The notes beneath the pieces were generated by a model, which did not search any database, was not told the origin of the DNA, and saw nothing but the letters and a program-made list of their open reading frames with translations. Source: Alphaproteobacteria bacterium (GTDB lineage: Bacteria > Pseudomonadota > Alphaproteobacteria > JACAEB01). From it: DNA of 64,000 nucleotides. The translations under genes were made by a program, and so were the position numbers. Where the stretch lies: assembly GCA_013389075.1 (NCBI GenBank), contig JACAEB010000217.1, forward strand, positions 1,981 to 65,980, in the 5' to 3' direction. Of the stretch, positions 6,468-14,421 are shown piece by piece. Numbering within the stretch: position 1 is the first letter of the stretch; each line of letters begins with the position of its first letter.

Positions 6468-7022
6468 ATAGCGCGCAGACCACACAATGCGAAGCCCCCG
6501 GTTCGTGACGACGGGCCTCGTGTCAATGACGAGATCACGGCCCGCGAAGTGCTGCTGATCGACGAGCAAGGCGAAAAGCGCGGCGTCGTCCCCATCGGGG
6601 AGGCATTGGCCGCCGCCGAACAGGCTGGACTCGACCTCGTCGAGATCGCCGCCGGCTCTTCCCCTCCCGTCTGCAAGCTGCTCGACTACGGGAAGTACAA
6701 GTTCCAGGCCCAGAAAAAGGCGGCCGAGGCCCGTAAGAAGCAGAAGGTCGTGGAGGTCAAGGAAATCAAGATGCGTCCGAACATCGACAAGCACGACTAC
6801 GATGTGAAGATGCGCTCCATCCAGAAATTCTTCGAGGAAGGCGACAAGGTGAAAGTCACCCTGCGCTTCCGCGGCCGCGAACTGGCGCACCAGGATCTGG
6901 GTTACCAGCTCCTGCGCCGGGTGGAGGCTGATGTCGAGGGACTGGGCAAGGTGGAAATGTCGCCCCGGCTCGAGGGGCGGCAAATGGTCATGGTGATGGC
7001 GCCGACCCGGCCGCACGCCTGA
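6468..7022 (+). CDS. infC: Translation initiation factor IF-3, starting at a non-canonical ATA codon
   Basis: Track ORF begins at GTG 6549, but the conserved IF3 N-terminus (…[19 protein letters not shown]…) continues in frame upstream to ATA 6468-6470, which sits 8 nt after GAGGAGG. An atypical AUU/AUA start is the established autoregulatory feature of infC. Confidence 0.8.
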
Positions 7023-7184: not shown

Positions 7185-7274
7185 GGAGAGGTGGCTGAGT
7201 GGTTGAAAGCACCGCACTCGAAATGCGGCATACTCGCAAGGGTATCGGGGGTTCGAATCCCCCCCTCTCCGCCA
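7185..7274 (+). tRNA. tRNA-Ser (anticodon CGA)
   Basis: 90-nt cloverleaf. Acceptor GGAGAGG/CCTCTCC+G+CCA. Anticodon stem CCGCA/TGCGG with loop CTCGAAA gives anticodon CGA. Long variable arm. T-arm GGGGG-TTCGAAT-CCCCC. Confidence 0.9.
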
Positions 7275-7285
7275 GTTGAGTCCCC

Positions 7286-8776
7286 TCACAGATCCATCAC
7301 CGCGTCGACGTCCTTCGGCAGCGGCTTGGGCCGTTCGGCGAGGGAGAGGCCGACGAACAGGATCAGCGAGCACAGGAAGGCGAGATAGCCGCCATTGACG
7401 CCATAGGGCGTGGGCAGACGGAAGAGCTCGATCCCGAAATTGACGATGAGGCTCACCGAGATCGCCGCGATGGCCGCGCGGGCGCTTGCGCGCTTCCAGT
7501 TGAGCCCGATCGCGACGACGGGGAAGATCGCCGCCGCGAAGGTGCCCCAGCCAAAGGCGCCAAGAAGAGCCACGAGCCGGTCATTGGCGAGGAGCGCCAC
7601 GCCGAAGGCGACGAGCGCGAGTGCAATCGTCGCCCAGCGTGCCCAGTAGAGCTCGTTGCCGATCGGCCGTCCACGGATGGCCTTGGGGATGTCGTGGATG
7701 ATCGCCGCCGCACCGATGTTGAGGAACGAGTCCCCCGTCGACATGATCGCGGCGAAGAGCCCGGCGAAGACGACGCCGGCAAGGAGCGGATGGGCGAAGA
7801 GGTTGAGAAAGGCCGGCGCCGCATCGTCCGGCGCGCCGAGCGGCGCCTCGACCCCGCCTACGACCGCTGCCCGCATCACGACACCCACCGACACCCACAG
7901 GAGCGCGGCCATGGCATAGCCCCCGATGGCGAGCGGGAGGATGACCCGATTGTCCGTCAGCCGACGGTTCATCATCATCTTGGTGACGAGATGGGGCTGT
8001 CCCGCAAGACCGAGCCCGAAGAGAAAGAACCAGGCAAGGCATCCCAGCATGCCGAGCGTGCCATAGGGCATGATCGATTCGGGATCGTCCGCGAGCAGAA
8101 TCGAGGAGGCCTCCGTGAAGCCGCCGTCGAAGACGGTCGCCGCCGTGAACACGACGAGCACCCCCGCCGCGATCATCACGAGCCCCTGCACGAGATCGGT
8201 GTAGACGCCCGCGATCATGCCGCCCGTGACCGAATAGAAGATGAGGACCGCCGAGGAGAGCGCCGCGCAGGTGATGAGGCCGATCCCCGCGAAGAGCTCC
8301 GTCCCCCCGAGGATCGACTGCAGCACCGTGGCCATGGCGAGGATCTGCGTCGCGAGATAGCCGAGCACGCCGAGCAGGATGGCGATGCCGGTGAGAAGGC
8401 GCGCCGTCTCGCTCGAATAGCGCGCGGCGACGATGTCGGGCAGCGAGACCGTGTCGCGCAGCTCGGCCAGCATGCGGATGCGCTTGGCGACGAGGAAGAA
8501 GCCGAGCGCGTAGCCGAGGGCCGAGATGTTGATCATCCACACCGAGCTGAGGCCCAGCGAATAGACGAGGCCCGGCCCGCCGACGAAGCCAAAGCCCGAC
8601 AGCGTGCTCGAGAAGACCGCCATGCCGACGATCAGCGGACCGAGATTGCGGCCCGCCACTAAGAAGTCGCCCACCGATTTCGTCCGGCCGACGGCCCAGA
8701 TGCCGATGCCGACGCACAGGGCCATGTAGGTGAACACCGAGCCGAGCAGGATCTCTTCGCGCCAGGCCTCCATCAC
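7286..8776 (-). CDS. Sodium:solute symporter (SSS family) large subunit
   Basis: 496-aa polytopic membrane protein with SSS-family signature regions. ATGA overlap with the upstream small membrane protein. Confidence 0.85.
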   Translation of the reverse strand: MMEAWREEILLGSVFTYMALCVGIGIWAVGRTKSVGDFLVAGRNLGPLIVGMAVFSSTLSGFGFVGGPGLVYSLGLSSVWMINISALGYALGFFLVAKRIRMLAELRDTVSLPDIVAARYSSETARLLTGIAILLGVLGYLATQILAMATVLQSILGGTELFAGIGLITCAALSSAVLIFYSVTGGMIAGVYTDLVQGLVMIAAGVLVVFTAATVFDGGFTEASSILLADDPESIMPYGTLGMLGCLAWFFLFGLGLAGQPHLVTKMMMNRRLTDNRVILPLAIGGYAMAALLWVSVGVVMRAAVVGGVEAPLGAPDDAAPAFLNLFAHPLLAGVVFAGLFAAIMSTGDSFLNIGAAAIIHDIPKAIRGRPIGNELYWARWATIALALVAFGVALLANDRLVALLGAFGWGTFAAAIFPVVAIGLNWKRASARAAIAAISVSLIVNFGIELFRLPTPYGVNGGYLAFLCSLILFVGLSLAERPKPLPKDVDAVMDL

Positions 8777-9303
8777 ATGCCCCCCCGGGTCCGGCGCCGT
8801 TCGGCGAGGAGGGCCTCGAAGCGGGCCTCATCCTCCCGCGTGAGGACGAAGCGGCGGAAACCGAAGACATAAAGACCCACGAGGATCAGAGCCGAACTCC
8901 ACACCCCGTAGATCATCCAGGCGCTGGGCGTCGGAAACCCGAGGAAGAAGGAGGTCTCGCTGCTCTGAAGATAGTGCCGATAGCTCGTATTGATCTGTAT
9001 CCAGACGAAGAGCGCGAGGCCCGCATAGAGGAGAAGGCCCGCCCAGAAGCCTTTCGAGCGCAGACGCCTTGGCACGCTCATGACCACGAGAAGCCCCACG
9101 AAGCCGATGGTCAGGCATTGCAGGAGGAACCCCGCAAAGGCGATCGGCTCCCACCGCGCGGCACCGTCGCCGCCGATGCGCATGCCCGCTATCTCGGGGG
9201 GGCCGGCGCCGGCCGAGCCGGCGATCTCGGGGGTCAGAAGTGCCATGGCAAGCAGCCCGGCAATGCCGAGCAGCAGGGCCAGCACCAGGAGGCCGCTTCG
9301 CAT
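8773..9303 (-). CDS. Small membrane protein; putative SSS-symporter small subunit (DUF4212-like)
   Basis: 176 aa with two TM segments, start MRSGLL preceded by GGGAGAGGG. Translationally coupled to the symporter. Confidence 0.6.
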   Translation of the reverse strand: MRSGLLVLALLLGIAGLLAMALLTPEIAGSAGAGPPEIAGMRIGGDGAARWEPIAFAGFLLQCLTIGFVGLLVVMSVPRRLRSKGFWAGLLLYAGLALFVWIQINTSYRHYLQSSETSFFLGFPTPSAWMIYGVWSSALILVGLYVFGFRRFVLTREDEARFEALLAERRRTRGGM

Positions 9304-9542
9304 ATCCCTCTCCCTCGCCGCGCCTCGTCTTGTCTGGGCCTCGCCGTCGCGCGGCTGCCGGTCTGCCCCAGAGGTTTCAACGCGGCAGCCCGTCCGTCGC
9401 CGACGCGGACCAGCCCGCGCGCCCGGTGGCCTCTCCACCTGCGGATGTATACGATATTCGTCGATTCCGGCCCCTGGCCCTGTGGCTTGCCACGGGCCCG
9501 CGCTCGTTATGCTTGCTGCTTCGCGCGCAGCGAGGAGCAAGA

Positions 9543-11366
9543 GTGATCGCGACGGAAGCGGGACAGCGGAACGCTTATGCGACCCAGTATCACTTCGGAA
9601 CGGCGCCCCTCGCCGCCCTCCGGCATGGACGGGTCCTTGGGCTGCGCTATGATCGCCTGGAAGCTTCGATCCTGGAGGCGATTCGGGACCCCATGGCGGC
9701 CGATCTCATGCCTGTTCCCACAGCCCGACCACGGGTCACGATCGTCATGACGCCCCGTGAGCGCTTCACGCTGACGGAACGGGCGATTGATGCCGTTCGC
9801 GCCTCCACGGCGGTCCCGTTCCGCTTCATCTTCGCCTTCGCCGATCTGCCGGACTGGCTCGCGCCACGGCTCCGGCAGAGGGCGGACAAGGGTGAGATCG
9901 AGCTGCGCCAGGTTCGGGATGCCGCCTGGCCGAATCAGATCCGCATGGCGATCGCCGCTGATCTCGATACGGACTATGTCGTTTTCCTCGACAATGACGT
10001 CGTCCCCGAACCGGGATGGCTCGAGGCGCTGCTCGCCTGCGCGGACGAAACGGGCGCGGGCATCGTCGCGCCCCTCTATCTCTGGAGCGATGGAACCGGA
10101 CCCTCCGGGCGCATCCACATGGCCGGCGGGCGGCTGACCTGGATCGAGGGGCCGGACGGCTCCTCGCTGCGCGAGGAACACGCCCACATGAACGAGGAGG
10201 CCGAGGAGCTTGGCTCCGCCCTCTCCCGTCGCCCCTGCGATTTCGGCGAATATCACTGCCTGATGATCCGGGGCGATCTCGTCCGTTCCGGGATCGTCTT
10301 TCACGAACGAATCAATGCCCTCCACGAACATATTCACGCCTCGCTCGCCGCGCGCGAGCGCGGCCTTGCGACCTGGCTCGAGCCGGCCGCCCGGGTGACC
10401 TATCTCGCCTTCGCGCCCTACACGCTGCGCGATCTCGCCTATTACAGCCACCGGTGGAGCGCCGATGGCGGGGAGGAGAGCATCGCCGCCTTCGCCGAGC
10501 GCTGGGGCGTCCAGGACGACGAGATCTCCTTCGGAGGCGTCCGCCGCTTCCTTGCGCGCCATCGGGAGGATGTGACGCTGCTGCGCGCGGATGCCCCGGC
10601 CGGGCAGCTTGCCCGCACGATGCGCCCGGAGGATCTGGCACAGTCCCGCGCGCGCCTCCTCGACCAGGCGGCCGAGGCGGGATATCCACCCGCCGCCATC
10701 GCGGGTCTCGGCCGGGCCTGCCTCGCGGCCGCCTCGCTCCTCGATGGAGCCTACCGGGCCTGCGGGCGCCCCTTCCTGAACCACCTCGTGGGAACGGCGA
10801 GCGTCCTCCTCTTCTACCGCCTCCGCATCCAGACGGTTCTGGGTGGCCTGTTTCATGCCACCTTCACCCATGCGCCGACCATGACCACCGATCCGCAGAG
10901 CCAGCTCGCGCTCGTGACACAGGCGCTGGGCGGACCGGAGAAGACCCTCTCTCGCCTCGTCCACAGCTACGCGACACGGCGCCATCGCTGGAAAGCCCTT
11001 CCGGCGGGACCGAAAGCGCTCGAGGACCTGTCGCTGCTGGATGCCGAGGTCCTTGTGATCGCGGCGGCCAATGAAGCCGAGATGTGGCTGAGCGGGGAGC
11101 TCCGCCACGCTCCGGCCGGCCGCGAGATGACACGGCCGGTCGAGACGCTCGCAAAGGAAGCGCTCGCGACGATCGGCCTGCCCGGCCTGTCCCTCCTCCT
11201 GACCCAGATCGCCGCGACCCCGCCCGCCCCCGCGCCGGCCGGCACGGCCATCGGCGCCCCGGCCGCCTTCATGTTCCGCAGCGGCGCCCTCGTGCCCGTT
11301 CCCAATCCGCTGGCGCTCGTGACCAAGGCGTCATTGAGCCATCCGACCCGCTCGGCGGCCCGCTGA
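9543..11366 (+). CDS. Glycosyltransferase family 2 fused to a C-terminal degenerate HD (SpoT/Mesh1-like) domain
   Basis: GT2 core (PRVTIVMTP…FLDNDVVPEPGWLEAL). C-terminal region GRPFLNHLVGTASVLL…LGGLFHATFTH…DAEVLVIAAANEAEM aligns with the HD-domain pattern (PYI-H-PL…LLHD…IKLADRLHNM), with catalytic D/H replaced. GTG start sits 5 nt after GAGGAG. Confidence 0.65.
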   Translation: MIATEAGQRNAYATQYHFGTAPLAALRHGRVLGLRYDRLEASILEAIRDPMAADLMPVPTARPRVTIVMTPRERFTLTERAIDAVRASTAVPFRFIFAFADLPDWLAPRLRQRADKGEIELRQVRDAAWPNQIRMAIAADLDTDYVVFLDNDVVPEPGWLEALLACADETGAGIVAPLYLWSDGTGPSGRIHMAGGRLTWIEGPDGSSLREEHAHMNEEAEELGSALSRRPCDFGEYHCLMIRGDLVRSGIVFHERINALHEHIHASLAARERGLATWLEPAARVTYLAFAPYTLRDLAYYSHRWSADGGEESIAAFAERWGVQDDEISFGGVRRFLARHREDVTLLRADAPAGQLARTMRPEDLAQSRARLLDQAAEAGYPPAAIAGLGRACLAAASLLDGAYRACGRPFLNHLVGTASVLLFYRLRIQTVLGGLFHATFTHAPTMTTDPQSQLALVTQALGGPEKTLSRLVHSYATRRHRWKALPAGPKALEDLSLLDAEVLVIAAANEAEMWLSGELRHAPAGREMTRPVETLAKEALATIGLPGLSLLLTQIAATPPAPAPAGTAIGAPAAFMFRSGALVPVPNPLALVTKASLSHPTRSAAR

Positions 11367-11369
11367 GAC

Positions 11370-11957
11370 TCAGCCGCGTCCGGTCGGTTCGTCCCGCAAC
11401 GTCAGTGCCCCAATCGCCCTCACCGTGCTCGCCTGAGGGCCGGCGGGGCTTTCGGCCTCCGCGACGGCGAGTTCGACCGGCGTGTCGGGGGAGAGATCCT
11501 CGAAGCGGGGATCCACGACGGCGTTCTTGTGAAAGTAGATCTCGCGCCCGTCCGTGGTCGCGATAAATCCGTAGTCGGAGAAAAGACGAAGAACGCGGCC
11601 TTGCAGCGGACCGGCAAGCGTCTTCACATCGCCACGCACCTTCTGGGAGTGGTGCTCGAGCTGGCGCTCCATCGCGTCGAAGGCATCGCGCACCGCAAGA
11701 TACGAATCCAAATGGGCCTCGGCACTGCCGGGGTCGCGGCTGACCACGAGTTCGCGATCGGGCACGCGCACCTCGATCCGGACGTGATAGGCCCGCGAGG
11801 CCTGAGAGGGGCTGCGATGGGGGACCTCGACCACGACGCGGCACGAATTGATGTGGCGGAAGAAGCGATGCAGCTTGTCGGCCCGCTCGCGCACCCGGGC
11901 CTCGAGGGCGGACGAGCTGTCCATATTGTGGAAGGCGATCTCGAGCGGCGTGTCCAT
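11370..11957 (-). CDS. hpf: Ribosome hibernation promoting factor, long form
   Basis: 195 aa. N-terminal RaiA/HPF domain (MDTPLEIAFHNMD…AYHVRIEVRVP…) plus a C-terminal dimerisation-type domain (GRVLRLFSDYGFIATTDGREIYFHKN). Confidence 0.8.
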   Translation of the reverse strand: MDTPLEIAFHNMDSSSALEARVRERADKLHRFFRHINSCRVVVEVPHRSPSQASRAYHVRIEVRVPDRELVVSRDPGSAEAHLDSYLAVRDAFDAMERQLEHHSQKVRGDVKTLAGPLQGRVLRLFSDYGFIATTDGREIYFHKNAVVDPRFEDLSPDTPVELAVAEAESPAGPQASTVRAIGALTLRDEPTGRG

Positions 11958-11998
11958 GGCGTTGTTCCCTTCGTGGATTGAGCCCCGGCCCCGGTCGA

Positions 11999-12924: not shown

Positions 12925-13149
12925 CCCCTGAAAACCCTTGCCGCGACACCGGGTTGCGCTCACGTCCCACGCATCGGGAGAGGCGGAAGATCCTCCGCCC
13001 ACGTCCCCCATCCCGACGGCGAGCGGCAGCAGCACTCAGGACCGGGAACCTTGCCGGATGTCCACACTTGTCCCCATGCGCCTGCCGGCCGGACAGCCGA
13101 TGCGGGACGCGCGATCACACCCCTCTTCATGAATGACGGGAGACGCACA

Positions 13150-13509
13150 ATGCCTTCAAGACCATCCCTGCGAACGAGCGCTATCGCACTCGCCGCCGCC
13201 CTCGGTCTCGGGCTCACCGCCAGCGCCGCCAACGCGCAATGGTGGGACGACGAGGAGCTCTACGAGGACAATGCCTACTCGGAGGGCTATTACGACGACT
13301 ACGAATATGACGACTGGTACTACGACGAATACGACGAGAGCTTCTACGATGACGAGGACTGGGGCTGGAATGACGACTACGAGTACGACGACACCAGCTA
13401 CTATGACGGGTACGGATATACGCCGACCGAGGATTACAGCGACTATTACGAGCCCGACTATCTGACCGAGGACGGCGATTTCGATCGGGAGTGGTGGGAC
13501 TGGTTCTGA
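13150..13509 (+). CDS. Secreted, extremely acidic Tyr/Trp/Asp-rich low-complexity protein (about 120 aa)
   Basis: RBS GGGAGA. Signal peptide MPSRPSLRTSAIALAAALGLGLTASAANA. Mature part is QWWDDEELYEDNAYSEGYYDDYEYDDWYYDEYDESFYDDEDWGWNDDYEYDDTSYYDGYGYTPTEDYSDYYEPDYLTEDGDFDREWWDWF. Confidence 0.6.
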   Translation: MPSRPSLRTSAIALAAALGLGLTASAANAQWWDDEELYEDNAYSEGYYDDYEYDDWYYDEYDESFYDDEDWGWNDDYEYDDTSYYDGYGYTPTEDYSDYYEPDYLTEDGDFDREWWDWF

Positions 13510-13557: not shown

Positions 13558-14421
13558 ATGCCCAGCACCTACCAGAAGACGCCGCTGAGGCTGACCAAGG
13601 TCTCATCCCTCGCGCTGCTGAGCGCCGCCCTTTTCGCCACCCCCGCCGTGGCCGGCGACAAGGGCGGTGACAGCTATGGAAAGAAGAAGAGCGGTTATGA
13701 GCAAGGCATGAAACGCCATGGCTCCGACAAGGGCGACCAAAAGAGCCAAAGGAGTGACATGAACCGCTCGCAGCAGCAGCAGCAGGCCGGCCGCACCCTG
13801 ACGGGCACCGTGGTCCAGACCAAGGAGGTCCGTCGTCGCGATACCGGCAAGACCAATCTTGTCGCGCAGATCGAGCGGCAGAACGGGGAACGGATCATCG
13901 TCGACCTCGGCAACACCGACCAGTGGTACCAGGACGATTTCCAGAATGGCGACCGTGTCTCGATATCCGGAAACCCCGGTCGCGTCGGCAACCGCCTCGT
14001 CTATTTCGCCAAGACCGCCACGATCGACAACGAGCAGGTCAAGATCGAACGCGATCCGGGAAACCGCAAGTCGAAGACCCAGAACGATTCGCGTCAGATC
14101 GAGGGGCAGGTGTCCCAGACGCGGCAGATGAACGTTCGCGGTCAGGACACGCAGACCGTCTGGGCGCTGATCACCACCGATCAGGGCAATTATGTCGTCG
14201 ATCTCGGCGAGGCGCGCGACTTCAGCGCGAGCGATCTCAACAACCAAACGGTGAGCGCGCGAGGCCGCGACGTGCGCGTGCGTGATCGCATCGTCTTTCT
14301 CACCGACCAGTTCCGCATGAACGGACAGACCTACACGGCACTCCGGCCGGCCCGTGTCATCATGGGCTATGCCCGGAATGAGTCCGCACAGTCGGGCAAT
14401 CAGCAGAGCGGTCGACGCTAG
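13558..14421 (+). CDS. Secreted protein with two tandem ~85-aa beta-rich repeats and a polar Q-rich linker
   Basis: RBS AAGGAGGG. Signal peptide. Internal repeat: GERIIVDLGNTDQW…GDRVSISG…RLVYFAKTATIDNEQVKIER versus GNYVVDLGEARDFSASDL…QTVSARGRDVRVRDRIVFLTDQF…ALRP. Confidence 0.65.
   Translation: MPSTYQKTPLRLTKVSSLALLSAALFATPAVAGDKGGDSYGKKKSGYEQGMKRHGSDKGDQKSQRSDMNRSQQQQQAGRTLTGTVVQTKEVRRRDTGKTNLVAQIERQNGERIIVDLGNTDQWYQDDFQNGDRVSISGNPGRVGNRLVYFAKTATIDNEQVKIERDPGNRKSKTQNDSRQIEGQVSQTRQMNVRGQDTQTVWALITTDQGNYVVDLGEARDFSASDLNNQTVSARGRDVRVRDRIVFLTDQFRMNGQTYTALRPARVIMGYARNESAQSGNQQSGRR

Follow-up and report, generated by a model that had tools for sequence, protein, structure and literature searches.

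The gene at positions 9543-11366 (+ strand) of a 64,000-nucleotide stretch of alphaproteobacterial DNA (contig JACAEB010000217.1, assembly GCA_013389075.1; referred to here as the window) joins a family 2 glycosyltransferase (GT2) domain to a C-terminal region that resembles the hydrolases of the alarmone (p)ppGpp. The question raised by this locus is what such a region does on a glycosyltransferase. The first-pass annotation, made from the sequence alone, took it for a degenerate and inactive domain that might act as a nucleotide-sensing (pppGpp) regulator. The analysis described here places the domain among the true homologues of the RelA/SpoT/Mesh1-type HD domain, and points to an altered metal site that appears to be under selection and that resembles the iron site of the oxygenase SmaX. 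The gene product is proposed to be a soluble two-domain protein.

An HD-fold domain of the RelA/SpoT lineage

The main features of the gene are given below, and residue numbering throughout follows the 607-amino-acid form that begins at GTG 9543.

9543-11366, + strand: open reading frame (ORF) of 607 amino acids from GTG 9543, with its stop codon at 11364-11366
9726-10592, + strand: GT2 (GT-A) glycosyltransferase domain and helical linker, residues ~62-350, from Pfam PF00535, AlphaFold2 (AF2) and Foldseek
10605-11222, + strand: HD-fold domain of the RelA/SpoT (HD_4) / DUF6817 lineage, residues ~355-560, from profile searches, AF2, Foldseek and hhalign
11268-11297, + strand: C-terminal beta hairpin, residues 576-585 (family motif S-Y-R-I; FMFR here), seen as DSSP strands in both AF2 models

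Scans with the single sequence of the C-terminal region returned only sub-threshold matches (Pfam HD_4, E=0.15; DUF6817, E=0.03; NCBIfam SpoT PRK11092, E=0.0015), and the protein misses the gathering score of Pfam PF13328 (12.3 vs 27.2 bits). Homology was left unsettled by these scans, and a family profile, built from 35 family members, was therefore searched against solved structures. The profile matched Rel of T. thermophilus (6s2t/7ohg) with E=7.3e-10 over the whole domain, aligning its positions 330-505 to residues 21-194 of the chain. Further matches were to B. subtilis Rel (3.5e-8), SpoT (1e-6), RelSeq (3e-4), S. aureus Rel, M. tuberculosis Rel and, more weakly, Mesh1, and a profile made from the C-terminal region only returns the same list of Rel and SpoT structures. 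Residues 352-607 were also modelled with AF2 (predicted local distance difference test, pLDDT, 92; predicted template modelling score, pTM, 0.90). The top 29 Foldseek matches of this model in the PDB are all hydrolase domains of Rel, SpoT, RelSeq, Mesh1 or RelH (probability 1.0), and cyclic-nucleotide phosphodiesterases, which share their superfamily, come next. True homology to the RelA/SpoT/Mesh1-type HD domain is thereby confirmed for the C-terminal domain.

The prediction that a GT2 domain is followed by a region like the (p)ppGpp hydrolases is therefore borne out by the PF00535 match, by the family profile (E=7e-10) and by the top 29 Foldseek matches. Of the checks proposed with it, the structural model gave the expected alarmone-hydrolase fold, while the Pfam search fell short for the single sequence and became significant, against Rel and SpoT structures, only through the family profile. 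The extent of the domain, first placed at ~420-607, is corrected to ~355-560 with the hairpin at 576-585.

The hydrolases among the RelA/SpoT homologues (RSH) and the small alarmone hydrolases (Rel, SpoT, RelSeq, Mesh1 and RelH; HD_4) are the best matches to the domain by both profile and fold, and over a core of ~175 residues the order of helices is the same. RSH hydrolase domains lack the C-terminal beta hairpin of this family, just before which S575 is nearly invariant among homologues. Unlike RSH proteins, this protein has no synthetase, TGS or ACT domains, and a glycosyltransferase is fused to the HD-like domain instead.

The altered metal site and its conservation

In RSH hydrolases the Arg of motif HD1 and the Asn of HD6 touch the guanine base, the HD2 His, HD3 His-Asp and HD5 Asp-Arg/Lys provide the Mn ligands, and the HD4 Glu-Asp pair serves the nucleophilic attack and is proposed to activate water (PMC9293644). 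The definitions of HD1 to HD6 are taken from that source; Atkinson 2011 does not use this nomenclature. Three segments of the protein correspond to these motifs in the HMMER alignment, confirmed with MAFFT:

10755-10784, + strand: RACGRPFLNH, aligned to R-x-S-G-E-P-Y-I-x-H, with the HD1 Arg at R405 and the HD2 His at H414
10848-10871, + strand: LFHATFTH, aligned to LLHDxxED, with the HD3 His at H438, A439 in place of the HD3 Asp and T442-H443 in place of the HD4 Glu-Asp
11061-11084, + strand: AAANEAEM, aligned to KLADRLHN, with N510-E511 in place of the HD5 Asp-Arg and M514 in place of the HD6 Asn

All three correspondences, including the changes of HD to HA, ED to TH and DRLHN to NEAEM, had been read from the sequence and were reproduced by both programs, and the substitution of metal and catalytic residues was likewise confirmed. 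The HD1 Arg, the HD2 His and the HD3 His are retained, and the HD3 Asp, the HD4 Glu-Asp, the HD5 Asp and the HD6 Asn are all replaced. By the RSH family's own criteria the domain is not a (p)ppGpp hydrolase, since the canonical metal and catalytic residues are gone.

The residues that have taken their place are strongly conserved. All 120 homologues compared have R405, C407, G408, R409, F411 and H414 unchanged, the same is true of H438, H443 and A509, and N510 is present in 118 of the 120. Position 439 is Ala, Ser or Thr in every homologue and never Asp, position 442 is Thr or Ser, and position 513 is Asp or Glu in all 120. Because the replacement residues are as fixed as the retained ones, the variant site appears to be maintained by selection and not to be decaying. 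The description of the domain as degenerate or inactive is not supported: the substitutes occur in 118-120 of the 120 homologues and are common to standalone relatives, and the same set of candidate ligands is present in the active enzyme SmaX.

The pseudo-hydrolase domain of RelA is reported to be another RSH-type HD domain that has kept its fold and lost the residues for ppGpp hydrolysis (PMC8012599). In RelA it is a regulatory part of a ppGpp synthetase, whereas the substitutes found here form what appears to be a conserved alternative site, common to an active iron enzyme. RelA structures (8fr8, 5iqr) were weak PDB matches only, and this was the sole comparison made with RelA.

The altered site extends well beyond the fused proteins. 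A profile of the domain was searched against 1.84 billion representatives of clusters at 50% identity and matched 1,573 of them, 885 at E<=1e-10. The matched set contains GT2 fusions (with the domain at ~300-530 of ~520-560 amino acids), many standalone proteins of 230-290 amino acids and some two-copy proteins. Proteobacteria of soil and water often carry members of the family, among them Rhodanobacteraceae, Casimicrobiaceae and Nitrotoga. Standalone relatives (~250 amino acids) pass the Pfam gathering scores of both DUF6817 (37-46 bits) and HD_4, and some of the fused relatives pass that of HD_4. Standalone and fused proteins share one signature, R-x-G-[RK]-[PT]-F-x-x-H ... H-[AS] ... A-N-E-x-[ED]. 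Judged by these motifs, the C-terminal domain belongs to a DUF6817-like branch in which the His...His-Asp...Asp Mn site has become His...His-(Ala/Ser)...Asn.

Standalone DUF6817-like genes can also occur in tandem, as on contig L025 (441-2067), where they encode proteins of 269 and 271 amino acids, and three proteins of ~585 amino acids (P0149, P0168 and P0170) contain two copies of the domain. The tandem and two-copy forms suggest that the domain may act as a dimer or heterodimer.

Comparison with the mono-iron oxygenase SmaX

SmaX, described in 2025, is an atypical HD-domain Fe(II) oxygenase from a Stenotrophomonas graspetide cluster, and its HHpred matches are only to DUF6817 and HD_4 (PMC12186529). 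A single Fe(II) is predicted to be bound by H39, H63 and N143, and the H39A, H63A and N143A variants are inactive (PMC12186529). The enzyme contains 0.8 Fe per protein, is active with Fe2+ only, and carries out the O2-dependent C-C cleavage of an alpha-hydroxy acid (PMC12186529). Its authors regard it as the first HD protein without the metal-binding Asp, and state that no HD phosphohydrolase lacking the Asp of the HD dyad is known (PMC12186529). In the literature searched this was the only paper to mention DUF6817, and SmaX was the only characterised DUF6817 protein.

The SmaX sequence was obtained by back-translating the core peptide GDGDGIPTL and scanning genomes, which led to Stenotrophomonas forensis. 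The recovered protein of 199 amino acids agrees with the published numbering at H31, H39, H63, T68, R104, N143 and Q147, and matches DUF6817 with E=3e-25 (88.6 bits). In this genome (L014, NZ_CP082270.1, 168-3262) the sma graspetide cluster consists of a 2-oxoglutarate (2OG) oxygenase gene, SmaX (773-1369), a second 2OG-like gene, an ATP-grasp gene and a precursor that ends ...GGGDGDGIPTL.... On a Luteimonas sp. contig (L023, 1940-3139) SmaX and the 2OG oxygenase form a single fusion ORF, as has been reported for some clusters (PMC12186529).

When the family profile was compared with SmaX by hhalign (probability 86%, E=5e-6), G33-R34...H39 of SmaX was paired with G408-R409...H414, H63-S64 with H438-A439, and T68 with H443. 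When the query was aligned by MAFFT with other family members, standalone relatives, SmaX and two Rel proteins, A142-N143 of SmaX, A509-N510 and the A-D of Rel HD5 shared one column. In these alignments H414, H438 and N510 are column-equivalent to the SmaX iron ligands H39, H63 and N143, and are candidate ligands themselves. The likeness extends to the spacing between the two His, which is 24 residues in both, and to an acid three residues past the Asn (E146 in SmaX, E513 here). SmaX is also the partner of a second enzyme, to which it is sometimes fused; the fused partner here is the GT2 domain.

There are also clear differences between the two. SmaX lacks the HD1 Arg that this family retains, and has neither the N-terminal helices nor the C-terminal hairpin of the family. 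It works beside an Fe/2OG hydroxylase in clusters for peptide natural products; the HD-like domain is instead paired with a GT2, and there is no such cluster.

Other HD-fold oxygenases use two irons. The diiron HD oxygenases employ iron and O2 to cleave the bond beside a hydroxyl, and two of them, PhnZ and TmpB, perform the second step of a cascade of two enzymes (PMC12186529). These enzymes hold their two irons with four His and two Asp, and this domain has no second set of ligands. Membership of the diiron group was ruled out, as both Asp are missing (439 is Ala and 510 is Asn) and no diiron oxygenase was found among the top 50 fold matches.

Pairing with the glycosyltransferase

The AF2 model of the full-length protein (pLDDT 92, pTM 0.90) suggests that the two domains may be packed in a fixed arrangement. 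Further evidence for their association comes from genomes in which they are encoded separately. On contig L026 a GT2 of 303 amino acids, 33% identical to the GT2 domain of this protein (E=6e-39), has the motifs of its family, and its gene shares 4 nucleotides with the standalone HD-like gene that follows. On L031 a GT2 with 35% identity (E=1e-39) ends 17 nucleotides before a standalone HD-like gene and is itself flanked by two further GT2 genes in the same orientation. A third standalone relative adjoins GT2, carrier-protein and GT4 genes. The order of the split genes, GT2 and then HD-like, is the order of the domains in the fusion. Since the split versions adjoin, with the same GT2 subfamily directly upstream in L026 and L031, the pairing of GT2 and HD-like domains is probably functional. 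Many other standalone relatives, such as the tandem pair of L025, lie on short contigs without an adjacent GT2.

The first-pass annotation was not aware of any description of this combination. No paper on a GT2 and HD-like fusion was found in the literature searched, and to that extent the remark stands; in the precomputed Pfam annotation of some homologues, however, PF00535 already occurs with PF13328 or PF20680. The architecture is therefore catalogued, without an assigned function.

A longer version of the protein is found in Nitrotoga, where homologues of ~950 amino acids (P0025, P0054, P0056, P0113 and L005 8001-10856) carry, ahead of the GT2 and HD-like unit, a further GT2 at the N-terminus together with TPR repeats and a SEC-C zinc motif (CPCGSGRRFKECCG). 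This architecture suggests a multi-step or protein-directed glycosylation machine. A divergent GT2 of 266 amino acids on the betaproteobacterial contig L006 was considered as a counterpart of the extra N-terminal GT2 and ruled out, as it is not a homologue.

What the C-terminal domain may do

The reading preferred here, to which we give slightly less than an even chance, is that the protein is an enzyme with two activities: its C-terminal domain would bind one metal, probably Fe(II), through H414, H438 and N510 and catalyse a second step on the acceptor or product of the glycosyltransferase. The N-terminal GT2, with its intact DxD motif, would transfer a sugar from a nucleotide-sugar donor. 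H414, H438 and N510 would coordinate one metal ion, by analogy with SmaX most likely Fe(II), and the invariant H443 and E513 would line the pocket. The HD-fold domain would be catalytically active on the same molecule as the glycosyltransferase, whether acceptor or product, giving a two-step reaction. An iron site is proposed because H414, H438 and N510 match the SmaX ligands, each of which is needed for SmaX activity; from this likeness in sequence we infer metal binding, oxygenase or other catalysis, and the coupling of the two activities. A more specific form of the idea, which is possible but doubtful, is that the GT2 and HD-like pair represents a widespread and hitherto unrecognised two-step pathway of Proteobacteria, in which a 2-His-1-Asn mono-iron HD enzyme would perform O2-dependent chemistry on a sugar, glycoside or alpha-hydroxy-acid acceptor.

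Several observations weigh against an iron enzyme of this kind. The protein itself misses the gathering score of PF20680 (DUF6817), with 13-14.8 vs 25.2 bits, and SmaX is a distant cousin, scoring 16.6 bits on the family hidden Markov model (HMM) vs 35-41 bits for T. thermophilus Rel. Of the residues by which SmaX contacts its substrate, H31, T68 and Q147 correspond to A406, H443 and M514 and are not kept, and the equivalent of R104 is uncertain; since these contacts are not shared, the substrate must differ. Neither the neighbourhood in the window nor the contexts of six homologues contain an Fe(II)/2OG hydroxylase as a partner. Finally, two residues that touch the nucleotide base in Rel enzymes, the Arg of HD1 and an aromatic residue (Tyr in Rel), are retained as R405 and F411, which leaves room for nucleotide binding.

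This last point belongs to the argument for a catalytically dead relic of an alarmone hydrolase that would bind (p)ppGpp or another guanine nucleotide and regulate the glycosyltransferase allosterically. In sequence and fold the domain is closest to the Rel and SpoT hydrolase domains, both R405, whose counterpart contacts guanine in RSH enzymes (PMC9293644), and F411 are invariant, and a regulatory pseudo-hydrolase domain is known in RelA (PMC8012599). The neighbouring ribosome-hibernation-factor gene and pcm are stationary-phase functions, but this adjacency is probably accidental because the gene neighbourhood varies between lineages. Against a sensor of this type, the other base-contacting residue, the HD6 Asn, is Met, the substitutes for the catalytic residues are conserved like the retained ones, which is unexpected for a relic site, and standalone proteins, which have no attached enzyme that they could regulate, share the variant site. 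In SmaX, moreover, this ligand set is catalytically active. Nothing examined points to ppGpp binding, so the nucleotide-sensing regulator put forward in the first-pass annotation is not supported, and we consider it the least probable of the explanations weighed here.

An acceptor-binding, oligomerisation or scaffold module without catalytic activity, needed by this GT2 subfamily in fused form or as its own subunit and using the His and Asn residues to hold a structural metal or ligand, is unlikely. The high pTM of the two-domain model and the overlapping or near-abutting split genes would be in keeping with a stable complex, dimerisation is obligatory in small alarmone hydrolases (PMC9293644), and the TPR and SEC-C motifs of the Nitrotoga homologues suggest contacts between proteins. 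Yet the invariant residues gather at the positions of the ancestral active site and not in a surface patch resembling an interface, and many standalone relatives, among them the L025 tandem pair, have no GT2 beside them on the contig. We hold it very unlikely that the domain is a non-canonical metal-dependent phosphohydrolase that takes a phosphate or diphosphate group off the acceptor, off the product or off the nucleotide set free in the transfer. A glycosyltransferase combined with a phosphatase is a known logic in compatible-solute pathways, for example trehalose-6-phosphate synthase/phosphatase, and could serve as a model. Most characterised members of the HD superfamily are phosphohydrolases or phosphodiesterases (PMC12186529), the nearest solved folds are pyrophosphohydrolases and then cyclic-nucleotide phosphodiesterases, and the presence of ppsA directly before the gene in Rhodanobacteraceae could hint at a phosphorylated three-carbon acceptor. 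However, all acidic metal ligands and the water-activating Glu-Asp pair are missing here, no HD phosphohydrolase without the HD-dyad Asp is known (PMC12186529), and the ppsA linkage is confined to one lineage.

The ligand set of SmaX, which was described in the setting of peptide natural products, is fixed in a far larger family (>1,500 clusters at 50% identity). One major branch of this family is tied to one GT2 subfamily, fused or adjacent. If the iron enzyme proposed above is real, the metabolism of bacterial glycoconjugates or small-molecule glycosides includes an as yet unexplored reaction. In the more specific, O2-dependent form of the idea the HD-like enzyme would be the first HD-fold mono-iron oxygenase in glycoconjugate synthesis, and would provide the second characterised chemistry for the DUF6817 branch. 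For annotation, the lesson is that a change of 'HD to HA' in this lineage should not be taken as the mark of a dead alarmone hydrolase.

The glycosyltransferase domain and the start of the gene

The match of the N-terminal domain to PF00535 lies above the gathering score (27.4 vs 23.3 bits, E=3.7e-6). In the established mechanism of GT-A enzymes a divalent cation assists the transfer of sugar from the nucleotide-sugar donor, and the domain has a motif of the DxD type:

9990-9998, + strand: DxD motif D150-N151-D152 (DND), both Asp of which are invariant in alignments of 35 and of 63 homologues

In Foldseek the glycosyltransferase domain comes closest to B4GALNT1, the ppGalNAc-T family and AvpGT, with E~1e-9 to 1e-10 across ~300 columns; this is a general GT-A likeness and does not fix specificity. 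NCBIfam also gives a weak similarity to MftF (E=5.6e-9), far under its cut-off. The GT-A fold and the DxD-type motif are held in common with polypeptide GalNAc-transferases (GT27), B4GALNT1, AvpGT and MftF, but identity to these proteins is only 13-19% and this protein has no lectin domain. Unlike the known GT-A relatives, the GT2 domain family has conserved motifs of its own, namely IHMAGG, EYHC and HEHI.

More than 300 full-length homologues of ~540 amino acids are known, with 40-49% identity, mainly from Gamma-, Beta- and Alphaproteobacteria. For the start of the gene the following features were noted:

9693 and 9708, + strand: alternative ATG starts of the same ORF, giving 557 and 552 amino acids
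9626-9653, + strand: sigma-70-like promoter match TGGACG-16-TATGAT, upstream of ATG 9693 and ATG 9708 and inside the unconserved N-terminal stretch

The longest open form of the ORF on this strand runs over 9240-11366, and GAGGAG is found 5 nucleotides upstream of GTG 9543. The first ~50 amino acids from this GTG are unconserved in all homologues. The promoter-like site is a consensus match only, found once vs 0.1 expected in shuffles. A protein from an alphaproteobacterial metagenome-assembled genome (P0001), 100% identical, is listed by NCBI with 552 amino acids, which corresponds to a start at ATG 9708. The GTG start is doubtful because of the unconserved N-terminus, the promoter-like site inside it and the NCBI call of 552 amino acids, and the true start is probably 9693 or 9708. 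This uncertainty has no effect on the domain finding.

Genomic context

The fusion gene stands alone in the window. Across six fused homologues the neighbours are ppsA, an M48/TPR peptidase, MgtE, a second GT2 with a methyltransferase of the protein-lysine methyltransferase (PKMT) type, and a glyoxalase, and these six contexts contain neither a conserved partner nor a polysaccharide locus; a 2OG oxygenase and an obvious precursor peptide are absent as well. The context yields no clue to the substrate. A PADLOC search gave no match, and the gene is not a known defence component.

In Rhodanobacteraceae (L001, L002 and L007-L009) the fused gene begins 8 nucleotides or less from the end of ppsA, which encodes phosphoenolpyruvate (PEP) synthase, and in L002 the two overlap. 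This linkage is kept across several genomes of the lineage and not outside it, and a TetR regulator and a fatty-acid beta-oxidation operon follow the fused gene. On the betaproteobacterial contig L006 the fused gene is preceded by the divergent 266-amino-acid GT2 and followed (10142-11734) by a methyltransferase of 530 amino acids with the PKMT-type domains PF10119 and PF21782.

Downstream of the fusion gene in the window lie two convergent genes, one of them pcm. The other (11370-11990, - strand) encodes an S30AE hibernation factor domain (E=6e-16) with a C-terminal cold-shock domain (CSD, E=6e-7); long hibernation promoting factors (HPFs) usually have a dimerisation domain in the position of this CSD. 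Two ORFs without Pfam matches are found beyond, on the + strand. The first (13051-13509) encodes 152 amino acids with an N-terminus like a signal peptide, followed by low-complexity sequence extremely rich in Asp, Glu, Tyr and Trp (YYDDYEYDDWYYDEYDESFYDDEDWGW...), and the second (13558-14421) a predicted secreted protein of 287 amino acids with apparently two internal repeats (...V..L...DQ/GN..VDLG...).

Divergent from the glycosyltransferase gene are an SSF sodium:solute symporter (7286-8776, - strand) and a small membrane protein with no Pfam match (8773-9303, - strand), whose genes overlap by 4 nucleotides at 8773-8776, and these look like a small-subunit/transporter pair. Further upstream are infC, for translation initiation factor IF-3 (6549-7022, + strand), and tRNA-Ser(CGA) (7185-7274, + strand), the sole tRNA in the 64-kb window.

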